Assembly: GCA_028864975.1 (NCBI GenBank)
Contig: JAGWLG010000010.1
Coordinates: 1-64,000 of the forward strand
From: Thermoplasmata archaeon
GTDB lineage: Archaea; Thermoplasmatota; Thermoplasmata; Lutacidiplasmatales; UBA184
DNA length: 64,000 nucleotides
Direction of reading: 5' to 3'
Within the stretch, counting starts at the first letter, position 1. Each line of letters begins with the position of its first letter. Below, one piece after another: positions 9,771 to 22,118 of the stretch. The translations under genes and the position numbers were made by a program. A model generated the notes under the pieces. That model searched no databases. It was not told the DNA's origin and worked only from the letters and a program-made list of their open reading frames with translations.

Positions 9771-11030
9771 TCACCCCAGGGCACTGGCCAGCTCGATGGC
9801 CCTTTCCAGGACGGGGTCGCGCCCCGCCAGCAGGTCTTCGCGGGCGGCGAAGACCTCGAGGTCCGGGGTGATCCCGATCCCCTCGAATGGGCTCCCATCC
9901 GGGAAGTGGGCCCGCTTGGTCCCGACGAAGGCTCGGAGGCCCTCGGGAAAGTCAAGGATGTAGGGCTGCCCGGTGCTCCCACAGGTCGTCGACCCCACCA
10001 GCGTCGCTCGTCCCGTGTCCTTGAGCGGCATCAGGAAGTCCTCGCACGCAGAACCGCATCGCCGATCCGCCAAGGCGATCAGGCGCCCCCGGTAGCTTCC
10101 CTTCTCCGGTCGGTGGGCCCCCGAGGGGAACCAGGCCTGCAGCCCGTCCCATTCTCGTAGAGGTTCGAGGGGGGCGAGCCGCTCCTTGGTCAAGTTGAAA
10201 CCATCTCCCTCTCCCCGCTCGAGCAGGTCCAGCAGATGGACATGCGCCCGGACGAACCCCACACGCTGGGGGGTCGAGAAGGCCCATCCCCGCCATGGCC
10301 GGTCCATCAGGCGCGGGAGGAGGAGGGTCGGAGTGCTCCCTCCGGTGTTCCCGCGAACATCGATGACGATCGTGGAGGCTTGCTGGAAGTGGTGCGTGAG
10401 CTCGATCGCCCTCCTCTCGTGGTCAGGCGCTCCGAACGATGGGATGCGAAGGTAGGCGACCTTCCCTCTCCGGAGCCACCTCCCTCGGGTCCTCTCCCGA
10501 GGGGGTTCACGTCGGCCTGGGACCCGCCGCAGGGTCCATCGACGACCTTGGGTCTGGAGCGAGACGCGACGGGGGAAGAGTCGGGGCAAGGCGGTCAGGT
10601 GCCGCTTGCGAGCGTCTTCGCTCGAACCCGAGATGAATCGCTGGCGGTCCTGGTAGAAATCATGGGGAGTCGTTCCATCGATCCGTTCGAGGACCTCCCC
10701 CGCTCGGACCTCGGGAGACCATGACTCCTCGACCACCCAGTCTCGCCCGATCGGGGCCGCGCGGAAACCCAGGGACCCACCGAGAGGCTTCCAGCCCACC
10801 GGGTCGAGGTAGAATGTGTGGCCGTTCTTCAGGCTCGCGAGAAAGGCGGACATTTCGAGAGAGAAGTGGTTGCGGTCCCCTCGACCGATGGTGGAGTCCA
10901 GGAGCTTCTGATACGCTCCCTCCAAGTCGAGCCCGCCGGTCGCTTCCCAGTGGGCGAAGGCGAGGTCGACCGCGCTCCGAACGGACGAAGCGATGTAGGC
11001 CCGTCGAGCAGGGGAGAGGTCCTTCACCAA
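9771..11030 (-). CDS. S41-family peptidase with PDZ-like segment
   Basis: YLRIPSF, IVIDVRGNTGGS, catalytic-Ser motif CGSACEDF, ATLVGSTTCG and EGIGITPD. No obvious signal peptide. TTG start. Confidence 0.88.
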   Translation of the reverse strand: MVKDLSPARRAYIASSVRSAVDLAFAHWEATGGLDLEGAYQKLLDSTIGRGDRNHFSLEMSAFLASLKNGHTFYLDPVGWKPLGGSLGFRAAPIGRDWVVEESWSPEVRAGEVLERIDGTTPHDFYQDRQRFISGSSEDARKRHLTALPRLFPRRVSLQTQGRRWTLRRVPGRREPPRERTRGRWLRRGKVAYLRIPSFGAPDHERRAIELTHHFQQASTIVIDVRGNTGGSTPTLLLPRLMDRPWRGWAFSTPQRVGFVRAHVHLLDLLERGEGDGFNLTKERLAPLEPLREWDGLQAWFPSGAHRPEKGSYRGRLIALADRRCGSACEDFLMPLKDTGRATLVGSTTCGSTGQPYILDFPEGLRAFVGTKRAHFPDGSPFEGIGITPDLEVFAAREDLLAGRDPVLERAIELASALG

Positions 11031-12290: not shown

Positions 12291-14114
12291 TCACCGCGGC
12301 GCAGCGACAGCATGCCCCGCGGGGGCTCCCGAGGCGCCGTCCCCTGCAGAGCCGCCCAGCCCGCGCTCGAGCTCCGCGAGCTCCCTCGAGGTCATCCGGT
12401 GGAGGAGGGCCAGGTCGGCCGCCTCCATCACGTCCGCGCTCTCGACCGTAGAGCGTCCCTCGAACGCGGCATTCGTCCGGGCGAGCTGCTCCATCATGAC
12501 GTCCAGGTTCGCGCTCTGGTGGTCGAGGAGCGTCATGCGCGCGATAAGGGTCATGACCTTCGTCGGAAGGTTGACGCCGTGCGTCCGGTCGCGCGCCTTG
12601 AGGAGGTTCGTCCGCGTCTCCTCCTCCTCGCGCGCATACTGCTGGCGGAAGGGCTCGGGGTTCTTGCGGAACTCCAGGTTGCGTCGGATGACCTCCAGGC
12701 GCTCCTCCACCGTGGACGGGCTCGAGACCTCCACGTGGAGCGTCATGCCCGAGAGCAGGTGGTAGGCCTCCTCGTCCTCGTCCTTGAGCCCGCCCAGGAC
12801 CGCGGGGGGAAGCGCGTGGGAGACGTGCGGGGCGGACCCCTGCTTCACGGGGGGCCGGGGGAGCGAGAGCGCGGCGGTCTGCAGGACCGTGTCGACCAGG
12901 TAGGCCCCGGTTTCCTTCCCGAAGTGGATGCGCCCGGTCAGGTAGCGCTCCTCGTCGCTCCACTTGCGGTAGTTCTCGGCGCCGAGCTTGAGCCGCTCGT
13001 GGACGGGCTCCAGCACCTGGGCGAAGGAGAGGATCAAGTTGAACTTCGCGTTCCCCTCGGGCCCCCAGAGGACCACGCCCCCTAGGGAGGGGTCGATCGC
13101 GCTTAGGAGCAGGGCTCTCTTCGCCTTGTCCTGACCCACGACCGCGGAGAAGGGGAACATCGGGGCCTTGAGCCGTCGGGAGAGCTGGGCGTAGCGTCCG
13201 CGCCGGAAGATGCGGGTCTGGAAGTCCGCCTCGATCTTCGCGCGCTCGCGCTCGAGGTCCGTATGGAACTTCTCCTTGAGGCGGGACTCCTCCTCCGAGA
13301 CCCGCGCCTTCGATTCCTGCGACAGGCGGGCTTCGATGGCCTCGGACTTCCGCACCATCTCGGTCTCGAGCCGTGAGCGCTCGATGGTGAGTTGCTGGGC
13401 GCCCTTCTTCTCGGCCTCGGCCTCGAGCTCGCTCGCGCGCTTGCGGCGCTCCTCCTCGAGCTTCGAGTGTCCCTCCGCCTCCCGTTGGCGGAGCTCGACC
13501 TCCAGGTTCCTGCGAAGTTCCGCCTCGCGGGCCTTCATCCGCTCGTCGACCTGTTCGCGGAGCTCCTCCTCCCGCTTGCGACCCTTGGCCTGGTAGGTCT
13601 CCTCCAGGTCCCTGCGGTCGCGGGCGAGCTCGCGGTCGCTGGCGCGCCGGGCCTCGTCCTCGAAGGCCTTCTTGTCCAGCGCGAGCTGGGACTTGAGGTC
13701 CTGTTCCCGCTTCTCGTAGCCCTGGAGCAGCTGGACCTTGAGCGCCTCGTTCCGCTGGTCGAGCTCGTCGCGGAACTTCTGGGTGAGCTCGGTCTCCTGC
13801 CGGGTCAGAGCCTCCTGGACCTTCCGCTCGGCGTCCGCGGCGGCATCGGCCTTCGCCTCGGCAAGGGCGCGTTCGAGCTCCCGCTGCGCCTTTTCCTCGT
13901 TCTGGCCCCAGCGTCGCTCCCACTCCAGGTCGCGGTCCCGCTGGGCCTTTCCGACAGATTCCGCGATGCGACGCTCGTTCGCCGTGGCGAGCTCCCTGAG
14001 CTCGAGAACCTTCGCATCCTCGAGCTCCTTGCGGGCCTTGGCGACCCCATCGGCGATCTTCTTCTGGATGAACGCCAGTTCCGCGTCCAGCTCGTTCGTG
14101 CTCTCGGGGGCCAC
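12291..14114 (-). CDS. Long coiled-coil protein fused to a degenerate ChlI-like AAA+ domain
   Basis: aa 1-~305 are an E/K/R/A-rich coiled coil. From aa 319: FPFSAVVGQDKAKRALLLSAIDPSLGGVVLWG (ChlI signature), but with Walker A GPEGNAKF, Walker B position IHFGKE and the arginine-finger DR replaced by SG. Confidence 0.85.
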   Translation of the reverse strand: MAPESTNELDAELAFIQKKIADGVAKARKELEDAKVLELRELATANERRIAESVGKAQRDRDLEWERRWGQNEEKAQRELERALAEAKADAAADAERKVQEALTRQETELTQKFRDELDQRNEALKVQLLQGYEKREQDLKSQLALDKKAFEDEARRASDRELARDRRDLEETYQAKGRKREEELREQVDERMKAREAELRRNLEVELRQREAEGHSKLEEERRKRASELEAEAEKKGAQQLTIERSRLETEMVRKSEAIEARLSQESKARVSEEESRLKEKFHTDLERERAKIEADFQTRIFRRGRYAQLSRRLKAPMFPFSAVVGQDKAKRALLLSAIDPSLGGVVLWGPEGNAKFNLILSFAQVLEPVHERLKLGAENYRKWSDEERYLTGRIHFGKETGAYLVDTVLQTAALSLPRPPVKQGSAPHVSHALPPAVLGGLKDEDEEAYHLLSGMTLHVEVSSPSTVEERLEVIRRNLEFRKNPEPFRQQYAREEEETRTNLLKARDRTHGVNLPTKVMTLIARMTLLDHQSANLDVMMEQLARTNAAFEGRSTVESADVMEAADLALLHRMTSRELAELERGLGGSAGDGASGAPAGHAVAAPR

Positions 14115-14137
14115 GCGATCGCCTTCTTCCCCGGACG

Positions 14138-16063
14138 TCAGAGGTTCTCCTCGATGACGCGCCGCAGACGCTCGGGACTGAACTCGGCCTGTTCAAAGGG
14201 TTTGCGCCGCATCCTGTGAGGCAGCGCCATCTCGGCGATCCGCCCCACGTCATCGGCGCTGACCTGGGTACGCCCCTCGAGGGCGCAGAGCGAGCGCGCT
14301 CCGCGCTCGATCATGATGTCGGCACGATGTCCGTCCACCCCGAAGGCCGTGGTGACCTTCGGGATCGCGGCGAAGAGCTTCTGGGAGATCTCGACCTTCG
14401 GCAGGATCTCCCGGCTCCGCTTGATCTTCTCCCGGATCTGTCCCTGAAGTGGCTCGAAACGGGCGCGGAAGTCCGCGGAGTCGCGTTCGAAGTCCTGCCG
14501 ACGTCGGACGATCTCCATCCGCGTGTTGAGGTCCTCGATGCCGACGATCGAGACCTGCAACGCGATTCGGTCGAGCAGCTGCGGCCGCAGGCTGCCCTCC
14601 TCGGGGTTCATCGTGCCGACCATGACGAACCTAGCGGGATAGGACACCGAGATCCCCTCGCGCTCGACGGTGACCCGCCCCATGGCGGCCGCGTCCAGGA
14701 GCACGTCCACGACGTAGTCGTCCAGGAGGTTGATCTCGTCGACGTAGAGGATGCCGCGGTTCGCCTCCGCGAGCACCCCGTGCTCGAAGGCGACCTCCCC
14801 CTCCGTGAGCATCCGGCTCACGTCCAACGTCCCCACGACCCGGTCCTCCGTCGCGTTCAACGGCAGGTCGACGACCTTGAGCGGACGCACCCGGGTGGGG
14901 ATCGCGTCGGGGGTGCGGCCCTGGTACTTCTCTGTGCACTCCCAGCACCATTCCTGGGGGCGGGCGGGGTCGCAGGAGAAGCGGCACCCTTCGACGATCT
15001 TGATCTCGGGGGTGATCTCGGTCAACCCCCGGACCGTGACGGACTTCGCGGTCCCCTTCTGTCCGCTGATGAGCACCCCTCCCACGAGGGGGTCGACGAT
15101 GTTGCAGAGCAGCGCGAGCTTCATCTTCTCCTGCCCGAGGACCCCGGAGAACGGGAAGAGCGCCGTCGCCTTCCGCCCCTTCGCTCCCATCAGCTTCGAG
15201 CGGGCTTCCTCGCGCTTCGCCTTCTTCGACTCCTCCGCGTGGGCGGCCGCGACCGCCTGCGCCTGGATCGTCGTCGGGGAGACCTCGGGCTGCTTGAGAA
15301 TGGCCTCCACCTGCACCTTGTTCTCGATCCGGCTCTCGACCTCGACCTCGGTCACCCCCGTTCCTCCCTCGAGGGTCGCCCGGAGCTGCCCCACCTGGAC
15401 CCCCGCCATCCCGCCACCCCCGGAGCCCGCCTGGGCGAGGGCTTCGCTGCGCTTCTTTGCCCCCTCGATGAGGAGGGCCCCGCAGTTCGTGCAGGAGATC
15501 GCGTCCGGCTCGACCGGCGCGTCGCACGAGGCGCAGCGCATCTCGCCGACCTCGAGCTCGGCCCCACACGTCGGGCAGGAGGAGGCGTGGAACGGGACAG
15601 GAGAGGAGCAGGTGGGGCAGAGCGCCTCGGGGTTCGTGAGCGGCTGTTTGCAATGCGGACAGAAGAGCGCCTCGGCCGGCACGAGGGCGCTACAATGCGC
15701 GCACTTGCAGCTCTCTGGGTCGAAGGCCGCCCCGCATCTTGCGCACCGGTCCGCGTAGACCGAGGTGACGGCCCCGCAGGCCGGGCAGAGCGACTCGTCC
15801 CCGACGAAGCGCTCCTCGCCCAGGACCTCCCCGACCAGGGCCTCGGTGTCGGGGTGGGCCCCTGGCTCTTCGACCGTGGGCAGCTCCGGGGTCGCCTCCT
15901 CCAGGAGCCCCTCGAGCTGCGCCGCGAGCTCGTTCACGGACTCATCGGGGGCGAACTCCTCGCCGTTCCCCTCCCCCTTGCCGTTGGTCGGAGGAGTGCC
16001 CTCCCCGCCCTCCGGTTCTGGGTCGGTGGGACGCGGCTCTTCAGGAGGAGGGACCGGGACCAT
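14138..16063 (-). CDS. ChlI/BchI-type AAA+ ATPase with four N-terminal zinc ribbons
   Basis: Acidic N-terminus, eight CxxC motifs, then FPFSGVLGQEKMKLAL..DPLVGGVLISGQKGTAKS, ANRGILYVDEINLLDD, TMNPEEGSLRPQLLDR and GHRADI. ATG 16063 has a GAGGTG Shine-Dalgarno 6 nt upstream. Confidence 0.92.
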   Translation of the reverse strand: MVPVPPPEEPRPTDPEPEGGEGTPPTNGKGEGNGEEFAPDESVNELAAQLEGLLEEATPELPTVEEPGAHPDTEALVGEVLGEERFVGDESLCPACGAVTSVYADRCARCGAAFDPESCKCAHCSALVPAEALFCPHCKQPLTNPEALCPTCSSPVPFHASSCPTCGAELEVGEMRCASCDAPVEPDAISCTNCGALLIEGAKKRSEALAQAGSGGGGMAGVQVGQLRATLEGGTGVTEVEVESRIENKVQVEAILKQPEVSPTTIQAQAVAAAHAEESKKAKREEARSKLMGAKGRKATALFPFSGVLGQEKMKLALLCNIVDPLVGGVLISGQKGTAKSVTVRGLTEITPEIKIVEGCRFSCDPARPQEWCWECTEKYQGRTPDAIPTRVRPLKVVDLPLNATEDRVVGTLDVSRMLTEGEVAFEHGVLAEANRGILYVDEINLLDDYVVDVLLDAAAMGRVTVEREGISVSYPARFVMVGTMNPEEGSLRPQLLDRIALQVSIVGIEDLNTRMEIVRRRQDFERDSADFRARFEPLQGQIREKIKRSREILPKVEISQKLFAAIPKVTTAFGVDGHRADIMIERGARSLCALEGRTQVSADDVGRIAEMALPHRMRRKPFEQAEFSPERLRRVIEENL

Positions 16064-16197
16064 GAAGCGCACCTCTTGAAGGCGCATGCGAGTGTATGTA
16101 CCTTGTCAGACCCCCGCCCGACCCCAACGGGTGCCCGAGGAGTGGGCTGGGCGGGGGCGAACTTGGTTCCTGGACCCTCCCGGGCTCCTCGCGAACG

Positions 16198-16203
16198 TTT
16201 AAG
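16198..16203. promoter_or_regulatory. TATA-like element in the divergent intergenic region
   Basis: TTTAAG in otherwise GC-rich sequence between the divergent chlI-like and cdvA-like genes. Confidence 0.5.
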
Positions 16204-16258
16204 TCCCCAGGCACGGTCTTATGACCTGCGGGACCCGCAAGGGGGGATCCCGCAGGTC

Positions 16259-17560
16259 ATGGGGGTCCTCGAGGGTATCAAAGGCTCGTTCTGGCCCTCC
16301 GGCAAGAGGGGCCTCGGTTCTCCGCTTTTCCTCGAGGAGGATGGTCCGATCCTCGGCGTCATCGACGACATCTTCCTCGACAAGAAGTCCGGACAGCCGG
16401 TCGCGTACCGCGTGCTGGCGAGCGGACAGTACCTCGAGGTCCCAGCCGAGGCCGTCACGGAGACCCCCGGGGGTTACATCTACCGCTCCCCCTGGTTCGC
16501 GGAGGCGGATGCGCTCGTCCGGAAGCTCGAGAGCCAGGAGCTCCTCATGCCCGAGCTCCTCTTCTCCTCCGTCGCGACCTCCGACGCCGACCGACGGCTC
16601 CTGGAGAGCGCGGTCGAGCGCTCTCCCGCGCTCAAGAAGATGGTCTCCCAGGCGACCGAGCTCTACCAGGGACTGTCCCCGCGCATCGACGCGCTCGAGA
16701 AGGAGAAGTACAAGGTCGTGGGAGAGGTCGCGGACCTCGCGGAGGGGCTCATGACGGGCCGCCTTCCCAAGGACGTCCATCGGGAGCGGTTCGTCGCGCT
16801 CAAGCGTCGTCTCCAGGTCTTGGATGCTTCCCTCCACCGAGGGGAGTCGCTCCGCCGTCGGCTGGAATCCATCCCGTTCGTCACGCTCGCCAAGAAGCCC
16901 GAGGTCGCCGGGGCCGGTCTCCCCTCGCTCCCTGCTGGAGCGATGGCGGGGGGCCGCCCCTCCGCCTTGAGCGCCGCCATGCTCCCCGGGTCCCCTGCGG
17001 GGGTCCGCCCCCCTCCCGGGGCCGGGGAGGAGTGGAAGCGTATCCGCAAGTTCCGCGTCCTGAAGGCGGAGGCCACGCTCCGCCAGAGAGAGGAGTCGCT
17101 CCACCGGATGGAGCAGGAGCTCCAGAAGACGGGGGGGGTCTCCCCCGAGCTCGTCCAGTCGCTCTCCCAGAACTACGACAAGCTCGCCAAGGCGATCGCC
17201 CAGGGCGGCCCCGACGGGCTCAAGAAGGAGATCGAGCGGATCGTCCAGGACAACGCCCAGAAGACGGCCAAGACGGAGACGAAGGCCCTCGGCTCGGCGC
17301 TCGGTTCCCCTGCCGCCTCGAGCCTCGGCAGCGCTCCCCCGGGGAAGACCTGTCCGCTCTGTGCCGAGCCGCTCACGGGGCGCGAGACCACCTGCCCCGG
17401 CTGCCAGGCCGACCTCAAGACCTTGGAAGAGGCGAAGGAGGGGTCGACGGGGCCCAACGGGGCCCAGAAGTTCTTCCGTGGCGGCGGAGCGACTAAGATG
17501 GGGGTCGTGCTGCTCATGGCGGCCGGCGCGACGTTCCTCTCCTGGTTCGTCCTACGTTAG
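16259..17560 (+). CDS. CdvA-like protein (PRC-barrel + coiled coil) with zinc ribbon and C-terminal TM helix
   Basis: 3' part of ORF 14216..17560, from ATG 16259. PRC-barrel-like LGVIDDIFLDKKSGQPVAYRV, then SPWFAEA and RIDALEKE..GRLPKDVHRE..LKRR as recalled for CdvA. CPLC..CPGC and a hydrophobic C-terminus follow. Confidence 0.7.
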   Translation: MGVLEGIKGSFWPSGKRGLGSPLFLEEDGPILGVIDDIFLDKKSGQPVAYRVLASGQYLEVPAEAVTETPGGYIYRSPWFAEADALVRKLESQELLMPELLFSSVATSDADRRLLESAVERSPALKKMVSQATELYQGLSPRIDALEKEKYKVVGEVADLAEGLMTGRLPKDVHRERFVALKRRLQVLDASLHRGESLRRRLESIPFVTLAKKPEVAGAGLPSLPAGAMAGGRPSALSAAMLPGSPAGVRPPPGAGEEWKRIRKFRVLKAEATLRQREESLHRMEQELQKTGGVSPELVQSLSQNYDKLAKAIAQGGPDGLKKEIERIVQDNAQKTAKTETKALGSALGSPAASSLGSAPPGKTCPLCAEPLTGRETTCPGCQADLKTLEEAKEGSTGPNGAQKFFRGGGATKMGVVLLMAAGATFLSWFVLR

Positions 17561-19623
17561 GTCGGTCCGCGCGCAGCGGATGCGGGGTCCTTTCCCCCGG
17601 CTCCGGCCGGTCTGTCCGCTTTTCCGTTACGGGGAGGTTTCCACTCGCGGGCCGGGGGACGTCGGTGGCCCGTGCCCGGCTCCGTGTTCTCCTCGGGACG
17701 CTCACGCTGCTCGTCCTCGTTGGTCCCCTTGGGCGGTCGCGGTGCCTTCGGCTTCAGGCCCCCGGACCCCCTCTCTCGGCGGGCCCGTTCGAGACGGTGG
17801 ACCCGGGTGCGGAGCAGGATGATTGCCCCGATGACGGCCCCGAGGCCGCCCACCTCGATCAGGAAGACCGGGATGAGCTGAGGGGGCACGGGGGGCACGG
17901 TCATGGTGAGCCGGATCTGCTGGTTGTCCGAGGTCACCTGCACCCGGGAGGCGGGGGCGCTGTACCCCGTGCCCTGGGCGACCGCCGAGACCTCGTAGGC
18001 CCCCACGAAGGTGTCGAGCCCCTCGAGGGTGACGACGTCCGTGGGGAGGAAGTGCCCGACATCCCCCTGCGCGTTCACCCCTAGGACCACGCAGGCGACG
18101 TTCGGGACCGTGCTGCACAACGAGACCTGGACCGAGGAGGCCGGGACCGAGGGTGGGGAGATGGGTAGCACGCTCACCAGCACGTAGCGGAAGACATGCA
18201 CGGCGACCTCGGCGGAGACCGTACTGATCCCGGCGATGGAGGCGGAAGCACCCCCCGTTGAGACGACCGTCGGGGTCCCCCAGTTGTAGACGCTCACGTT
18301 GGCGCTCCCCAGGACCGAGATCGCGGGCGCGCTCGCGTTCGTCAGGTTCACCCAGGGATTGTAGAAGACCATCGGGAACCCGAAGTGGGAGCTTCCGTTG
18401 GCCGTGAAGTTCCCCGTGGCCGCCGAGGTCACGGACGCGGCGCCGGGTCCGAAGCTCGAGTTCTCGACAGCCACGTTGACCGAGGAGGCGACCGCGAGGA
18501 CCGAAACCTGCGCATGGGCGATCGAGAGCTGGTGCAAGGGTCGAGCGATGGTCAGGTCGTTCACGACGACCTGGTCCGACGCGCTCCCCGTGGAACCCAG
18601 GCTCACATCGGTGGTGGCGTTGAGCGCCACGCCCGAGAGGACCGCGTCGTCCACCCCGAAGGAGGTCACGCTTTGCGGCAGGGAGAGGTTGACCACATGG
18701 ACCGGCACCGACGCCGAGACCCCTTGCAGGAGGACCTCGCCCACGCTCCCGCTCACGTTCAGCCAGTGGACATCGGAGCCCGAGTCGCTGAGCTCGGAGA
18801 GGGACCCCTCGAAGGACATCCGCGTGATCCGCGCGCCCCCCGGGGTCGCGCTGGGTCCGCCCGCGCTCCCGTCCAGCACCCCCCCGTTCGCCACCTGGAC
18901 GTTCCCGCCTCCGGCGGCCAGAAGGCTCCCGTTGGTGTAGAAGAACCCCCCCGCGACGGAGAGCCGGGAGAACGGGCCGAGGATGAGCGTGGAGGTGGGC
19001 GAGAGGGTCAGGTTCCCTCCGGTGTCGATCGTGAGGCTCCCGCTCACGAAGAGCCGAAGCGAGAGGCCCTTCTCCACCGAGAGGAAGGAGCTCGGTCCCA
19101 CGGTGAGGCCGCCCGCGACGTTCAGGAAGAGCGTGCCGTTGCCCGAGGCGGAAGCGTTGACCACGATGCCGTCCGCCCCTGAGACCACGAGGTTGCCGCC
19201 GGCGGCGATGTCCAGGTCCTCGTTGAGGTAGCAAGGAGAAGGGGTGGCGAACCCGGGAGGGGAGGCGGTGTTGAACGTGCTGGTCAAGGGGGAGATCAGA
19301 CCCTGGGCGCTGACGCAGTTCGGGAGCGGCCCCTGGGGCGTCGCCCCGATTTCGGGGCGTGCGCTCGGGAGCGAGGCAGGGGCGGGGTCGGAGGTAGTCG
19401 CGTGCGTCACGGTTCCCCTCTCGGAGGGGGCCGCCGTCAGAGATGTCGGCGCTCCCCCCCGTGCTCCGAGGTCTCGCGGGGCCGTGCTCGCGCCGAGAGC
19501 GTGGAGCGGGCCCTCCAAGCTGCCGAGGCTCAGGAGGAGCAGAACGAAGAGCGCGAGGCAGCTCGCCGCGAAGAGGTCCCCCCTCGCTCGTGCGGGATCG
19601 GAAGGCTCGCGGACGTCGCGCAT
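17557..19623 (-). CDS. Secreted or membrane-anchored beta-rich surface protein
   Basis: N-terminal hydrophobic segment, S/T/G/V/N-rich beta-helix-like body with many N-x-S/T sequons, C-terminal TM helix and charged tail. Its stop codon overlaps the convergent gene. Confidence 0.75.
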   Translation of the reverse strand: MRDVREPSDPARARGDLFAASCLALFVLLLLSLGSLEGPLHALGASTAPRDLGARGGAPTSLTAAPSERGTVTHATTSDPAPASLPSARPEIGATPQGPLPNCVSAQGLISPLTSTFNTASPPGFATPSPCYLNEDLDIAAGGNLVVSGADGIVVNASASGNGTLFLNVAGGLTVGPSSFLSVEKGLSLRLFVSGSLTIDTGGNLTLSPTSTLILGPFSRLSVAGGFFYTNGSLLAAGGGNVQVANGGVLDGSAGGPSATPGGARITRMSFEGSLSELSDSGSDVHWLNVSGSVGEVLLQGVSASVPVHVVNLSLPQSVTSFGVDDAVLSGVALNATTDVSLGSTGSASDQVVVNDLTIARPLHQLSIAHAQVSVLAVASSVNVAVENSSFGPGAASVTSAATGNFTANGSSHFGFPMVFYNPWVNLTNASAPAISVLGSANVSVYNWGTPTVVSTGGASASIAGISTVSAEVAVHVFRYVLVSVLPISPPSVPASSVQVSLCSTVPNVACVVLGVNAQGDVGHFLPTDVVTLEGLDTFVGAYEVSAVAQGTGYSAPASRVQVTSDNQQIRLTMTVPPVPPQLIPVFLIEVGGLGAVIGAIILLRTRVHRLERARRERGSGGLKPKAPRPPKGTNEDEQRERPEENTEPGTGHRRPPAREWKPPRNGKADRPAGAGGKDPASAARGPT

Positions 19624-19756: not shown

Positions 19757-21148
19757 ATGCCGTTCCAGGCTCTGCGGGGGTTCCGGGACTACCTGCCCGC
19801 GGACGCGGCCGCCCGTCGCGCGATCTTCGACACCGTCCGGTCGGTCACCCGCCGCTACGGCTTTGACGAGGTGGAGACCCCCAGCGTCGAGTCGCTCGAG
19901 CTGTTCAAGGTGAAGAGCGGAGAGGGGATCGTCGACGAGACCTTCTCGTTCAAGGACAAGGGCGGCCGGGAGGTCACCCTCGTCCCCGAGATCACCCCGT
20001 CCGTGGCGCGGATCTACGTCGACCGGGCGAAGATCGAACCCCTTCCCGTCAAGTGGTTCTCGGTGCAGAGGCTCTGGCGGTACGAGGAGCCTCAGTCCGG
20101 AAGGACCCGGGAGTTCTCCCAGGTCAACCTGGACATCCTGGGGGTCCCTGGTGTCGAGGGTGAGCTGGAGGTCCTTGCGGTCACGCGGCAGGTCATGGAG
20201 GAGATCGGGCTCGGCGGTCGCTATGTCTTCCGCACGAGCGACCGAAGGCTCGTGGAGGGGCTGGGAAGGGCGCTCGGGGCGAAGGAGACGGACCCTTTCT
20301 TCCGTGCGCTCGATCGGAGGGAGAAGCTCCCCTCCTCGGAGTTCCAGGGAGAGCTCGCGAAGGCCGGGCTCGGAGAGGACGCCCGAGGCCGTCTCACGAA
20401 GCTCCTGACGGACTGCGGCCCCGGCTTGTCCCCGAAGGAGGCCCCACGGGTGCTCGAGGAGGTCCGCGCGTGGCCTGGTCTGGGCGAGGAGGGCGTCCGG
20501 GGGGTCGAAGCGCTCCTCGAGCTCTTCCGTCGGGCCCAGGGCACCGAGCTCGAAGAGGTCCTGGTGTTCTACCCCTCCCTGGTCCGAGGACTGGCCTACT
20601 ACACGTCCACCGTGTTCGAGGCGTGGGCCCGGACCGGGGAGGTCCGCGCCTTGTTCGGCGGGGGGCGCTACGACAAGCTGGTCGAGCTCTTCGGGGGCCC
20701 GAGCGTCCCCGCCTGCGGGCTGGCGATCGGGGACCAGACCCTCGAGATCCTCATGCGCGAGGCGAAGATCTGGCCCGAGCGCCCGCCCGGTCTCGACGTG
20801 TACGTCGCCACGGTCGACCCCTCCCTCGCGCCGCAAGCAAGGACGTGGGCGGAGCGACTCCGGAAGGAAGGGTTCCTGACCGACTACGACCTGCTCGCCC
20901 GACCCCTGTCGCGCCAGATGAAGGAAGGAGGGAGGCGCGGAGCTCGGTCGATCGTGCTCCTGGGTCCCCGAGAGCTCGCGAAGGGCGAGGTCACGCTCAG
21001 AAATATGCGGACCGGTCAACAGGTCGCCGTCGCTTCTGGGGAGGTTGTGCCGTTACTGAAGGCCGATGCGGATGTCGGGTCACCCTCGGCCGCTCCCGCT
21101 CGATCTCCCGCTCGGCCGTCTCCTCCGGGGACCTCGAGCGTACCGTAG
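19757..21148 (+). CDS. hisS: Histidyl-tRNA synthetase
   Basis: LRGFRDYLP, FKDKGGREVTLVPEITPSVAR, WRYEEPQSGRTREFSQ, LVRGLAYYT, GGGRYDKL and a C-terminal anticodon-binding domain. Confidence 0.96.
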   Translation: MPFQALRGFRDYLPADAAARRAIFDTVRSVTRRYGFDEVETPSVESLELFKVKSGEGIVDETFSFKDKGGREVTLVPEITPSVARIYVDRAKIEPLPVKWFSVQRLWRYEEPQSGRTREFSQVNLDILGVPGVEGELEVLAVTRQVMEEIGLGGRYVFRTSDRRLVEGLGRALGAKETDPFFRALDRREKLPSSEFQGELAKAGLGEDARGRLTKLLTDCGPGLSPKEAPRVLEEVRAWPGLGEEGVRGVEALLELFRRAQGTELEEVLVFYPSLVRGLAYYTSTVFEAWARTGEVRALFGGGRYDKLVELFGGPSVPACGLAIGDQTLEILMREAKIWPERPPGLDVYVATVDPSLAPQARTWAERLRKEGFLTDYDLLARPLSRQMKEGGRRGARSIVLLGPRELAKGEVTLRNMRTGQQVAVASGEVVPLLKADADVGSPSAAPARSPARPSPPGTSSVP

Positions 21149-21971
21149 CGCCCGGTGCCGCCGCGTCCCTTCGGGGTGGGCGCGAGGGGACGTGGGACTC
21201 GGTCCAGGGGCGGGGGGCCAGCCCTTCGAGCGTCTCGCCATCGTAGAGGAGGATCCCGGGGGGGCTCTCGGCTCCTCGGGTGTGGCCGTGCCAGTAGACG
21301 ACCGCCCCCTCCCCGAACATGTGCGTGTAGGGTTCGAGCTGCTTGCGCAGGTTGCGTCTGAGCTCCACATCGTCCCCGAAGTTCGCCTTCGATTCGATCC
21401 AGCAGACCTTCTGTCCGTCCAGGACGATGGGATGATCGAGCAGCGCGTCGGGGGTCTTCGCGAACTTCCCTCTCAGGTCCTTTTCGGTCCGGTAGGTCAA
21501 CCCATGCTTCTTCAGCCAGTTCGCGAGGCGGGTCTCGCCCTTGATCCCCCGGGCCCGCTGGATCTCTCCGCCCTTGGGCGAGTAGACCCAGTCCGCCTCG
21601 AGTACCTCTATGACCTCGCGACGCAGGCGGGCGTCGGGGATGGCCTCCGGTCGCCGGAAGGCGTCCCAAAAGGTCCGTCGCGGGGTCTGGCGGGCCTTCT
21701 CGATGAGCTGGGCCATCAGCACCGGGGGGAAGCGGTACTGCCGCGCGAGGTCGAGGTAGCTCCGCCCCCGGTCCCACTCCTTGAGGAGCCGAGGGGCATC
21801 CTTCTGGACCACGTAGAACCGCTTGGTCGCGTCGCGGGTGACCCGGTGGGTGTAGATGACCATGAGAAGGTCCGGGTCGATCCCTTGCTCCCGGGCGATC
21901 CTGTCGACGTCCTCGTACTCCCGGAGCTGCCTCGAGAGCGATTGGTACTCGTCGCGGGAGAGCATTGTCAT
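20997..21971 (-). CDS. C15orf41/CDIN1-like (TPD-motif) PD-(D/E)xK nuclease-family protein
   Basis: KTPDALL..WIESKANFGD..KQLEPYTHMFGEGAVVYW with an N-terminal helical FPPVLMA region. A low-complexity tail overlaps hisS. Confidence 0.85.
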   Translation of the reverse strand: MTMLSRDEYQSLSRQLREYEDVDRIAREQGIDPDLLMVIYTHRVTRDATKRFYVVQKDAPRLLKEWDRGRSYLDLARQYRFPPVLMAQLIEKARQTPRRTFWDAFRRPEAIPDARLRREVIEVLEADWVYSPKGGEIQRARGIKGETRLANWLKKHGLTYRTEKDLRGKFAKTPDALLDHPIVLDGQKVCWIESKANFGDDVELRRNLRKQLEPYTHMFGEGAVVYWHGHTRGAESPPGILLYDGETLEGLAPRPWTESHVPSRPPRRDAAAPGATVRSRSPEETAEREIERERPRVTRHPHRPSVTAQPPQKRRRPVDRSAYF

Positions 21972-22118
21972 GGTGGGGGAAGGACCGTTCGGCCGCTCCG
22001 AAGACGGACCGCGCTTAACGGTAAGGGTCCGTCCACCCCCCGGGTAGCCTCCAGCCATGGTTCCCACCGGGCGAGAACCCGTGTCTGGCGAAGCAGACTA
22101 GTGTTGACATGCGTCAGC

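Follow-up and report, generated by a model that had tools for sequence, protein, structure and literature searches.

A chelatase-type AAA+ pair beside a tail-anchored CdvA-like protein: a candidate membrane-associated remodelling machine in Thermoplasmatota

The genes considered here occupy positions 12291-17560 of a 64,000-nucleotide stretch (the window) of contig JAGWLG010000010.1 from an uncultured Thermoplasmata archaeon of acid mine drainage; in our labelling this is contig C28 of the source genome, G000, whose assembly comprises 3.6 Mb in 124 contigs and is 89.6% complete. Three proteins are at issue: P0002, an active ATPase of the ChlI type; P0001, a stalked and catalytically dead relative of it; and P0004, a tail-anchored protein with the fold of CdvA, encoded divergently from the other two. 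Other genomes and loci with which they were compared carry the labels G### and L###, respectively. The features of the region are as follows, with residue numbers and the basis of each assignment in parentheses.

12291-14114, minus strand: P0001, ChlD/ChlI-like pseudo-ATPase, 607 amino acids (motif loss; Pfam AAA_lid_2 at 1.2e-8)
residues ~306-590 of P0001, minus strand: degenerate AAA+ module with AAA_lid_2 (two-piece profile alignment to ChlI)
13200-14054, minus strand: charged helical stalk of P0001, ~285 residues (residues ~21-305; composition and periodicity)
14138-16087, minus strand: P0002, active ATPase, 649 amino acids (Pfam; alignment to ChlI 8osf)
14141-15190, minus strand: ChlI-type AAA+ module of P0002 (residues ~300-649; intact catalytic motifs)
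15473-15790, minus strand: four zinc ribbons of P0002 (residues ~100-205; eight CxxC motifs, Pfam DZR 7e-17)
16088-16258, no strand: divergent intergenic region between P0002 and P0004 (sequence)
16259-17560, plus strand: P0004, tail-anchored CdvA-like protein, 433 amino acids (AlphaFold2 model, Foldseek, VIA-align)
16286-16873, plus strand: PRC barrel and three-helix domain of P0004 (residues 10-205; match to CdvA 9s9i/9s9g)
17021-17299, plus strand: second helical region of P0004 (residues 255-347; AlphaFold2 model)
17345-17416, plus strand: zinc ribbon of P0004 (residues 363-386; CxxC...CxxC at 365-382)
17498-17557, plus strand: transmembrane (TM) helix of P0004 (residues 414-433; C-terminal)

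The initial annotation of this DNA had recognized two co-oriented ChlI-like genes 23 nucleotides apart, one intact and bearing four zinc ribbons, the other degenerate, and each part of that description holds: the genes lie on the same strand with P0001 downstream, the gap runs from 14115 to 14137, and the eight CxxC motifs form the four ribbons. P0002 consists of an acidic, disordered, low-complexity leader, the ribbons, a linker and the ChlI-type AAA+ module, with Pfam matches to DZR, Mg_chelatase, AAA_5 and AAA_lid_2. The ChlI structure 8osf aligns with this module from end to end (E 9.5e-99), and its motifs are intact (Walker A GQKGTAKS, Walker B ILYVDE, the sensor-1 region NPEEG, RPQLLDR and GHRADI); everything that defines the ChlI/BchI family, namely Walker A, Walker B, sensor 1, the arginine finger, sensor 2 and AAA_lid_2, is found in P0002. 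Among its close ChlI relatives the N-terminal extension varies greatly (DZR, HHH, DUF835), and at the distant loci L096, L099, L103 and L104 the active ATPase carries an HHH_5 domain. The AAA+ module of this ChlI branch also holds an invariant C-x3-C-x8-C-x2-C insert (C368, C372, C381 and C384 of P0002; 14936-14986), at a position where cyanobacterial ChlI has no cysteines; lying between Walker A and Walker B, the four cysteines may form an extra metal site.

P0001 has lost what P0002 retains. Its sole Pfam match is AAA_lid_2 (1.2e-8), and of the ChlI/BchI motifs only the lid remains. The Walker A sequence reads GPEGNAKF (GPEGN[A/G]KF across the family), the segment corresponding to the arginine finger reads YHLLSG, and a profile of the family aligns with ChlI in two pieces, the first covering the N-terminal helix and P-loop and the second running from the helix after Walker B through the lid; between them, the roughly 90 residues that bear Walker B in ChlI are reduced to about 30. 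Because the P-loop is degenerate, the Walker B stretch is missing and the arginine finger is lost, we regard P0001 as a pseudo-ATPase, and its next-best database relatives are ChlD/cobaltochelatase proteins. ChlD and BchD are single polypeptides in which a degenerate N-terminal AAA+ domain is joined by a linker to a C-terminal vWA domain with its metal ion-dependent adhesion site (MIDAS). P0001 departs from that layout: the stalk is N-terminal, the degenerate AAA+ module is C-terminal and the vWA domain is absent. The stalk is rich in Glu, Arg, Lys and Ala and helical, and its hydrophobic residues recur with a period of 3.75-3.76 rather than the heptad value of 3.5, a peak reached by none of 1000 shuffled sequences; the 3.75 period is also present in eight homologues of P0001. 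Being pentadecad-like, this period points to a coiled coil that is right-handed or to a stable helix standing alone, so that the coiled coil of about 300 residues first proposed for this protein is right in spirit and non-canonical in kind. The stalk is variable overall and best conserved in a motif at its N-terminal tip, ELDAELAFIQKKI (residues 8-25 of P0001); the DNA encoding it contains no tandem repeats of note.

The vWA domain that ChlD would supply is encoded elsewhere. In five distant metagenomic loci (L011, L096, L099, L103 and L104) and in G010, a gene for a stand-alone vWA protein lies inside the motor operon, and G000 itself has an orthologue, at G000:C104:143004-144281 on the minus strand, that matches the L099 protein over its full length (E 1e-51, 29% identity). 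The observation that the window lacks a vWA gene therefore stands for the window and fails for the genome, where this dedicated gene is unlinked to the motor and flanked by archaeal pilin-N proteins. The stand-alone proteins are 357-435 amino acids long. In a sample of 401 genomes from the phylum, which underlies all of the co-occurrence counts given here, orthologues at E<=1e-30 were confined to G000, G067, G206, G010 and G089, and the same five genomes give the strongest matches to the pseudo-ATPase profile (E <= 1.5e-37), a co-occurrence of 5/5. The weaker matches, which come from families f2, f4 and f8, represent ordinary ChlI (~345 amino acids) and ChlD (~620-700 amino acids) proteins. 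The C-terminal half of the protein models as a vWA fold, with NorD vWA complexes (the NorQ-NorD structures) among its fold matches; the N-terminal half is assigned no fold because the predicted local distance difference test score (pLDDT) is <50 over most of residues 1-212 in a model built from a six-row alignment. The module thus shows the hallmark of MoxR/ChlI-vWA systems, a genetic link between an AAA+ ATPase and a vWA protein dedicated to it. G000 has a second such pair, a ChlI/MoxR-like AAA+ protein (531-residue open reading frame [ORF]) and a vWA protein (725-residue ORF) about 2 kb apart at G000:C6:74594-77036, and further weak ChlI-lid-like ORFs occur on its contigs C48 and C115.

The third protein, P0004, was initially described as a PRC-barrel, coiled-coil, zinc-ribbon and TM protein resembling CdvA, and structure prediction sustains both the architecture and the resemblance. 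The AlphaFold2 model (16-row alignment, pLDDT 69) has a beta-barrel at residues 24-75, three helices at 78-204, a disordered linker, helices at 255-347, the ribbon and the TM helix. When the model was compared with the PDB using Foldseek, the top nine matches were all chains of Sulfolobus islandicus CdvA (9s9i/9s9g; E 3e-6 to 4e-5 over ~190 columns), with PRC-barrel proteins coming next. VIA-align superimposes residues 10-205 on residues 6-196 of 9s9i_B with a Z of 12.0 (180/195 residues), 3.4 above the first unrelated helical row, and the nearest structural cluster of the protein's Atlas model is a PF18822 CdvA cluster. By structure comparison, then, P0004 has the CdvA fold, a PRC barrel followed by a three-helix coiled coil. 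Its sequence alone says much less: against Pfam it finds PRC at E 0.076 only, it matches neither PF18822 nor, even at E <= 1, the NCBIfam CdvA model NF041007, and a profile of its close family reaches PDB sequences at chance level only, CdvA not being among those reached. The link emerges in the wider family. A profile search of 1.84 billion representatives returned 77 relatives, and among the 68 family representatives scanned, 44 match PRC, 7 match PF18822 and 18 match NF041007 (best 5.4e-9); the NF041007 scores of two members, 17.7 and 18.7 bits, are far under that model's 350-bit cut-off. Because the sequences reach CdvA models weakly or not at all while the fold matches, P0004 is a remote relative with the CdvA fold and not a CdvA orthologue.

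The linkage between this protein and the motor is conserved, as the initial annotation had proposed should be checked: it occurs in three gene orders and in divergent lineages. The genes are divergent in the window; in G067, G206 and L009, from the same family as the window, they are co-directional, in the order CdvA-like, ChlI, pseudo-ATPase; and in the five distant loci the CdvA-like gene is convergent with an operon whose genes lie in the order ~800-residue beta-helix TM protein, ChlI with helix-hairpin-helix (HhH) and zinc-ribbon domains, stalked pseudo-ATPase and vWA protein of ~415 residues. The CdvA-like proteins of those loci share only ~20-29% identity with P0004, and every motor-linked CdvA-like protein ends in a C-terminal TM helix. 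For several more close homologues of the three proteins the longest contigs agree in length, an indirect sign that would fit co-location. The position of the zinc ribbon varies, from the C-terminus of the CdvA-like protein in the clade of the window to the N-terminus of the pseudo-ATPase in L011, L099 and L103, a shift that fits, and does not prove, a placement of those two termini close to one another. The ~800-residue protein is anchored at both its N- and C-terminus, and proteins of its family were not found in G000, G067 or G206, though the three-gene core persists there. An 840-residue protein encoded next to the unlinked vWA gene of G000 was considered as a member and showed no similarity.

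No chelatase enzyme was found to accompany the motor. The CobN/ChlH subunit that defines class I metal chelatases (CobN-Mg_chel, PF02514) had no match in G000, G067, G206 or G010, while positive controls were matched in five genomes; since these assemblies are 89.6-98% complete (G000 89.6%, G067 98%, G206 98%, G010 95%), the gene is likely, not proven, to be absent from them. Neither Snf7 nor Vps4_C was matched in G000, and Snf7 was also unmatched in G067, G206 and G010, with the limit that the Snf7 model is insensitive for archaea, because Sulfolobus scores under its cut-off. Since the whole G000 assembly yielded no CobN, Snf7 or Vps4_C, none is encoded in the window, as had been observed from its sequence. 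Given these results, the module appears to be neither a metal chelatase nor an ESCRT/Cdv division system; the C-terminus of P0004 is a zinc ribbon and a TM helix. What G000 does encode is the full known set for FtsZ-based division (PMC11188069; 10.1101/2023.03.28.534520): SepF, two small PRC-barrel proteins and three members of the tubulin family, of which two score as FtsZ-like and the third more weakly. With those genes present, any part that the module plays in division should be accessory, and the primary division role suggested at first is unlikely.

Comparison with known systems places the module between several of them. With ChlI-ChlD (BchI-BchD; 8osf, 6l8d, 1g8p/2x31) it shares an active ChlI-type AAA+ protein, a dead paralogue and a vWA domain. 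It differs in that no ChlH/CobN client was detected, in that two proteins, a pseudo-ATPase and a vWA protein with an incomplete MIDAS, together take the place of ChlD, in the charged N-terminal stalk of ~285 residues that replaces ChlD's linker, and in the four zinc ribbons and Cys4 insert of the active subunit. The MoxR-class pairs (NorQ-NorD, CbbQ-CbbO, RavA-ViaA) likewise combine a ring ATPase with a separate vWA protein bridging to a dedicated client; here, however, the motor comes from the ChlI branch rather than MoxR proper, there is a dead, stalked paralogue, and a CdvA-like membrane protein would be the client. The likeness to Vps4 (CdvC) is no more than a functional analogy, in that an AAA+ ATPase has a genetic link to a protein that is associated with the membrane and forms, or here would form, a polymer: the AAA+ clades are unrelated, MIT/MIM elements are lacking and ESCRT-III was not found.

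CdvA-type polymers are antiparallel double-stranded filaments held together by hydrophobic coiled-coil contacts. P0004 resembles the CdvA of Sulfolobales in fold (9s9g/9s9i; PMC12818579; Z 12.0 over 180 residues), and differs in failing to match the NCBIfam model, in the lack of cdvB and cdvC neighbours and of detectable ESCRT-III/Vps4 in G000, and in its C-terminus, which has a second helical region, a zinc ribbon and a TM anchor in place of CdvA's E3B peptide. No membrane-binding surface is seen in the solved CdvA filaments (PMC12818579), whereas P0004 is tail-anchored. The nearest precedents for divergent CdvA-like domains with a zinc ribbon and a long coiled coil outside canonical cdv loci are arCOG03733/03734 of Thermoproteales and proteins of Bathyarchaeia (PMC11188069). 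Those belong to another phylum and have an N-terminal ribbon, and the paper reports for them no TM anchor and no ATPase partner of the chelatase type; the same survey of ESCRT/CdvA diversity found extra CdvA-like proteins only in those two groups (PMC11188069). In the literature searched, no paper joins CdvA with a chelatase, or a PRC barrel with MoxR.

Most relatives of P0004 are of another kind. CdvA-like proteins occur in 38/401 sampled genomes, mostly in families f22, f11 and f43, and the copies in those families are soluble, with neither TM helix nor zinc ribbon. None of the ~35 soluble relatives has the motor within the flanks retrieved, which extend to ~10 kb on either side at most (less where the contig is shorter, as several are), and the pseudo-ATPase profile has no match in the f22 and f11 genomes. 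Instead, in 32/36 loci (L048-L083; for example L048:10471-12204, minus strand) the gene lies directly downstream, on the same strand, of one for a polytopic membrane protein of ~580 residues with about seven hydrophobic, TM-like segments and an N-terminal domain resembling S26 signal peptidases. The two genes are likely a conserved two-gene unit, of which the related literature consulted makes no mention. G010 brings the two situations together. Its motor operon (L116 = G010:C22, 5628-16084) runs, in reverse order of transcription, vWA protein, pseudo-ATPase, ChlI, 248 residues, 395 residues and an 801-residue beta-helix protein, and convergent with the vWA gene, at the position held elsewhere by the TM-anchored CdvA-like gene, is a homologue of the S26-like protein (E 3e-31); the 248- and 395-residue products within the operon are uncharacterized. 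G010 and the other neighbourhoods thereby link the motor with the CdvA-like protein and with a membrane anchor, which is provided either in cis or in trans. A single query did not find the S26-like protein in G000. In one case, on a 5.4-kb contig (L097 1478-5237), a CdvA-like protein with a zinc ribbon and no TM helix (P0161) is encoded 1.4 kb from ftsZ.

A chelatase motor without a chelatase enzyme, beside a membrane-anchored relative of CdvA, points to an undescribed membrane-associated protein-remodelling machine. Specifically, we suggest that these genes form the core of a module, conserved in Thermoplasmatota, whose AAA+ machine descends from chelatases, is coupled in function with a membrane-tethered CdvA homologue and reshapes a polymer of it, a reading to which we assign a probability of roughly 0.45. 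The parts would be the active ChlI-type ATPase with its zinc-ribbon extension (HhH and zinc ribbon elsewhere), the dead ChlD-like partner on its charged stalk, and the stand-alone vWA protein as adaptor. By analogy with ChlI/ChlD and the MoxR-vWA pairs, active and dead AAA+ modules would assemble into a mixed ring; the vWA protein, the tip of the stalk, the zinc ribbons or some combination of these could dock that ring, on the cytoplasmic side of the membrane, to the tail-anchored CdvA-like protein; and ATP hydrolysis could then drive assembly, disassembly or reshaping of a CdvA-type polymer there. The remodelling of a CdvA-like filament that was proposed at the outset thus survives as a conjecture by analogy, as do the formation of the hetero-oligomer and the direct contact of the motor with the CdvA-like protein. 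For the cell, we would envisage an accessory part in division or the shaping of the membrane or envelope.

Several observations weigh against this interpretation. That the CdvA-like protein polymerizes and is physically engaged by the motor is something we infer, and a prediction of the complex (vWA orthologue 1-405, P0001 tip 1-65 and P0002 zinc ribbons 96-210, with CdvA-like protein 1-390 as the partner) gave no answer (score 0.00), which speaks neither for nor against binding. The MIDAS of the vWA protein is incomplete, reading DxSx[Y/F/L] with the final Asp absent. The linkage has exceptions: no motor was seen on the contigs, two of them short, of three TM-anchored relatives (P0162, P0167 and P0169), and G010 has its motor operon on one contig and its CdvA-like gene, which is of the soluble form, on another. 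The module is patchily distributed (5/401 genomes). The CdvA-like fold evidently works without the motor, because most of its relatives, those of f22, f11 and f43, lack it entirely, and there is no obvious gap for the module to fill, because FtsZ, SepF and the small PRC-barrel proteins are present.

The principal competing explanation, which we consider rather doubtful, keeps the motor and changes its client: the CdvA-like protein would be only a membrane receptor or scaffold, and the machine would act on a beta-helix surface or TM protein, on another envelope protein or on DNA. The vWA adaptors of MoxR-type motors usually hold the substrate, and NorQ-NorD is among the fold matches of the vWA protein; a beta-helix protein of ~800 residues heads the operon in the five vWA-type loci and in G010; in the window the CdvA-like gene faces, in convergent orientation, that of a 688-residue beta-helix-like TM protein; and HHH_5 domains adorn the active ATPase in four of the loci. 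However, the ~800-residue family was not found in the three genomes in which the three-gene core persists, the 688-residue neighbour is not detectably homologous to it (hhalign 1.5%), and the CdvA-like gene is the sole partner to stay beside the motor in every gene order.

Two further accounts are less probable. The module might be a MoxR/ChlI-vWA conflict system, serving defence or signalling, with the CdvA-like protein as its membrane effector or sensor; the patchy distribution, the variable N-terminal extensions of the close ChlI relatives and some weak bpMoxR Pfam matches would suit such a system. We nonetheless think it improbable: PADLOC defence models did not match P0001, P0002, P0004, the vWA orthologue or P0158 at E<=0.001, the module is single copy, nuclease, protease and pore effectors are all missing from it, and its flanks are housekeeping genes (histidyl-tRNA synthetase in the window; ribosomal proteins, POR and IleRS-type genes in L009). 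Least credible of all, to the point of being nearly dismissible, is an ordinary ChlI/ChlD motor serving a CobN or ChlH encoded elsewhere in the genome, with the CdvA-like gene an incidental neighbour. The AAA+ module of P0002 is indeed very near true ChlI, and ordinary ChlI and ChlD proteins of the same class exist in archaea (those of f2, f4 and f8). Yet CobN-Mg_chel is unmatched in four genomes carrying the pair while control genomes match it, the equivalent of ChlD is split and re-ordered, and the CdvA-like linkage is kept through three arrangements.

In TACK archaea CdvA is taken to belong specifically to ESCRT-based division, and the manner of its contact with the membrane is an open question (PMC12818579). 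The CdvA-fold protein described here has a membrane anchor of its own, in an archaeon in which FtsZ genes were found and ESCRT-III was not. To our knowledge, metal insertion is the only process from which the ChlI-type AAA+ motor family is known; a physical coupling would mean that a chelatase motor has been re-used for protein or polymer remodelling, and the module would then offer an experimentally tractable handle on the roles of CdvA-type and PRC-barrel proteins outside the Cdv system. A broader proposal, which we offer tentatively and think unlikely as it stands, is that FtsZ-using Thermoplasmatota possess a second, hitherto unrecognized membrane-cytoskeletal system, a tail-anchored CdvA-type polymer driven by a chelatase-derived AAA+/pseudo-AAA+/vWA machine, with the soluble forms of related lineages anchored by the S26-like protein. 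On that proposal the machine would correspond in function to Vps4 without being of the ESCRT kind, and CdvA-type proteins would be older than ESCRT-III and separable from it. The pairing of the soluble form with that protein extends the topic to Thermoplasmatota lineages with smaller genomes (1.0-2.7 Mb).

The spacer shared by the P0002 and P0004 genes measures 171 nucleotides from the P0002 ATG at 16087; the value of about 195 first given for it applies if Met9 (16063) is the true start, in which case it is 195. It contains TTTAAG at 16198-16203 and a 16-nucleotide inverted repeat (16221-16236 / 16245-16260; 94% complementary, 8-nucleotide loop) whose 3' arm reaches two bases into the P0004 ATG. 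Judged by its position in the sequence, the repeat could be a translational or operator element. On the far side of P0004, the 688-residue protein (17557-19623, minus strand) is convergent with it, the two stop codons overlapping, and combines an N-terminal signal or anchor with beta-helix-like repeats rich in Ser, Gly and Val, a TM helix at the C-terminus and a basic tail. It was considered as a counterpart of the ~800-residue operon protein and set aside: the architecture is similar, and BLASTP finds similarity in the repeats only (E 0.004), with an hhalign probability of 1.5%.

The remaining flanks are ordinary, with a peptidase S41 (9771-11030, minus strand), histidyl-tRNA synthetase (19757-21148, plus strand) and a TPD-motif protein (20997-22067, minus strand), and no mobile-element genes lie beside the module in the window. 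The G+C content of the window is 65-73%. Close homologues of its proteins carry the labels of Thermoplasmatota/Thermoplasmata metagenome-assembled genomes, and near-identical DNA is present in mine-drainage and soil metagenomes (DNA runs from two studies).

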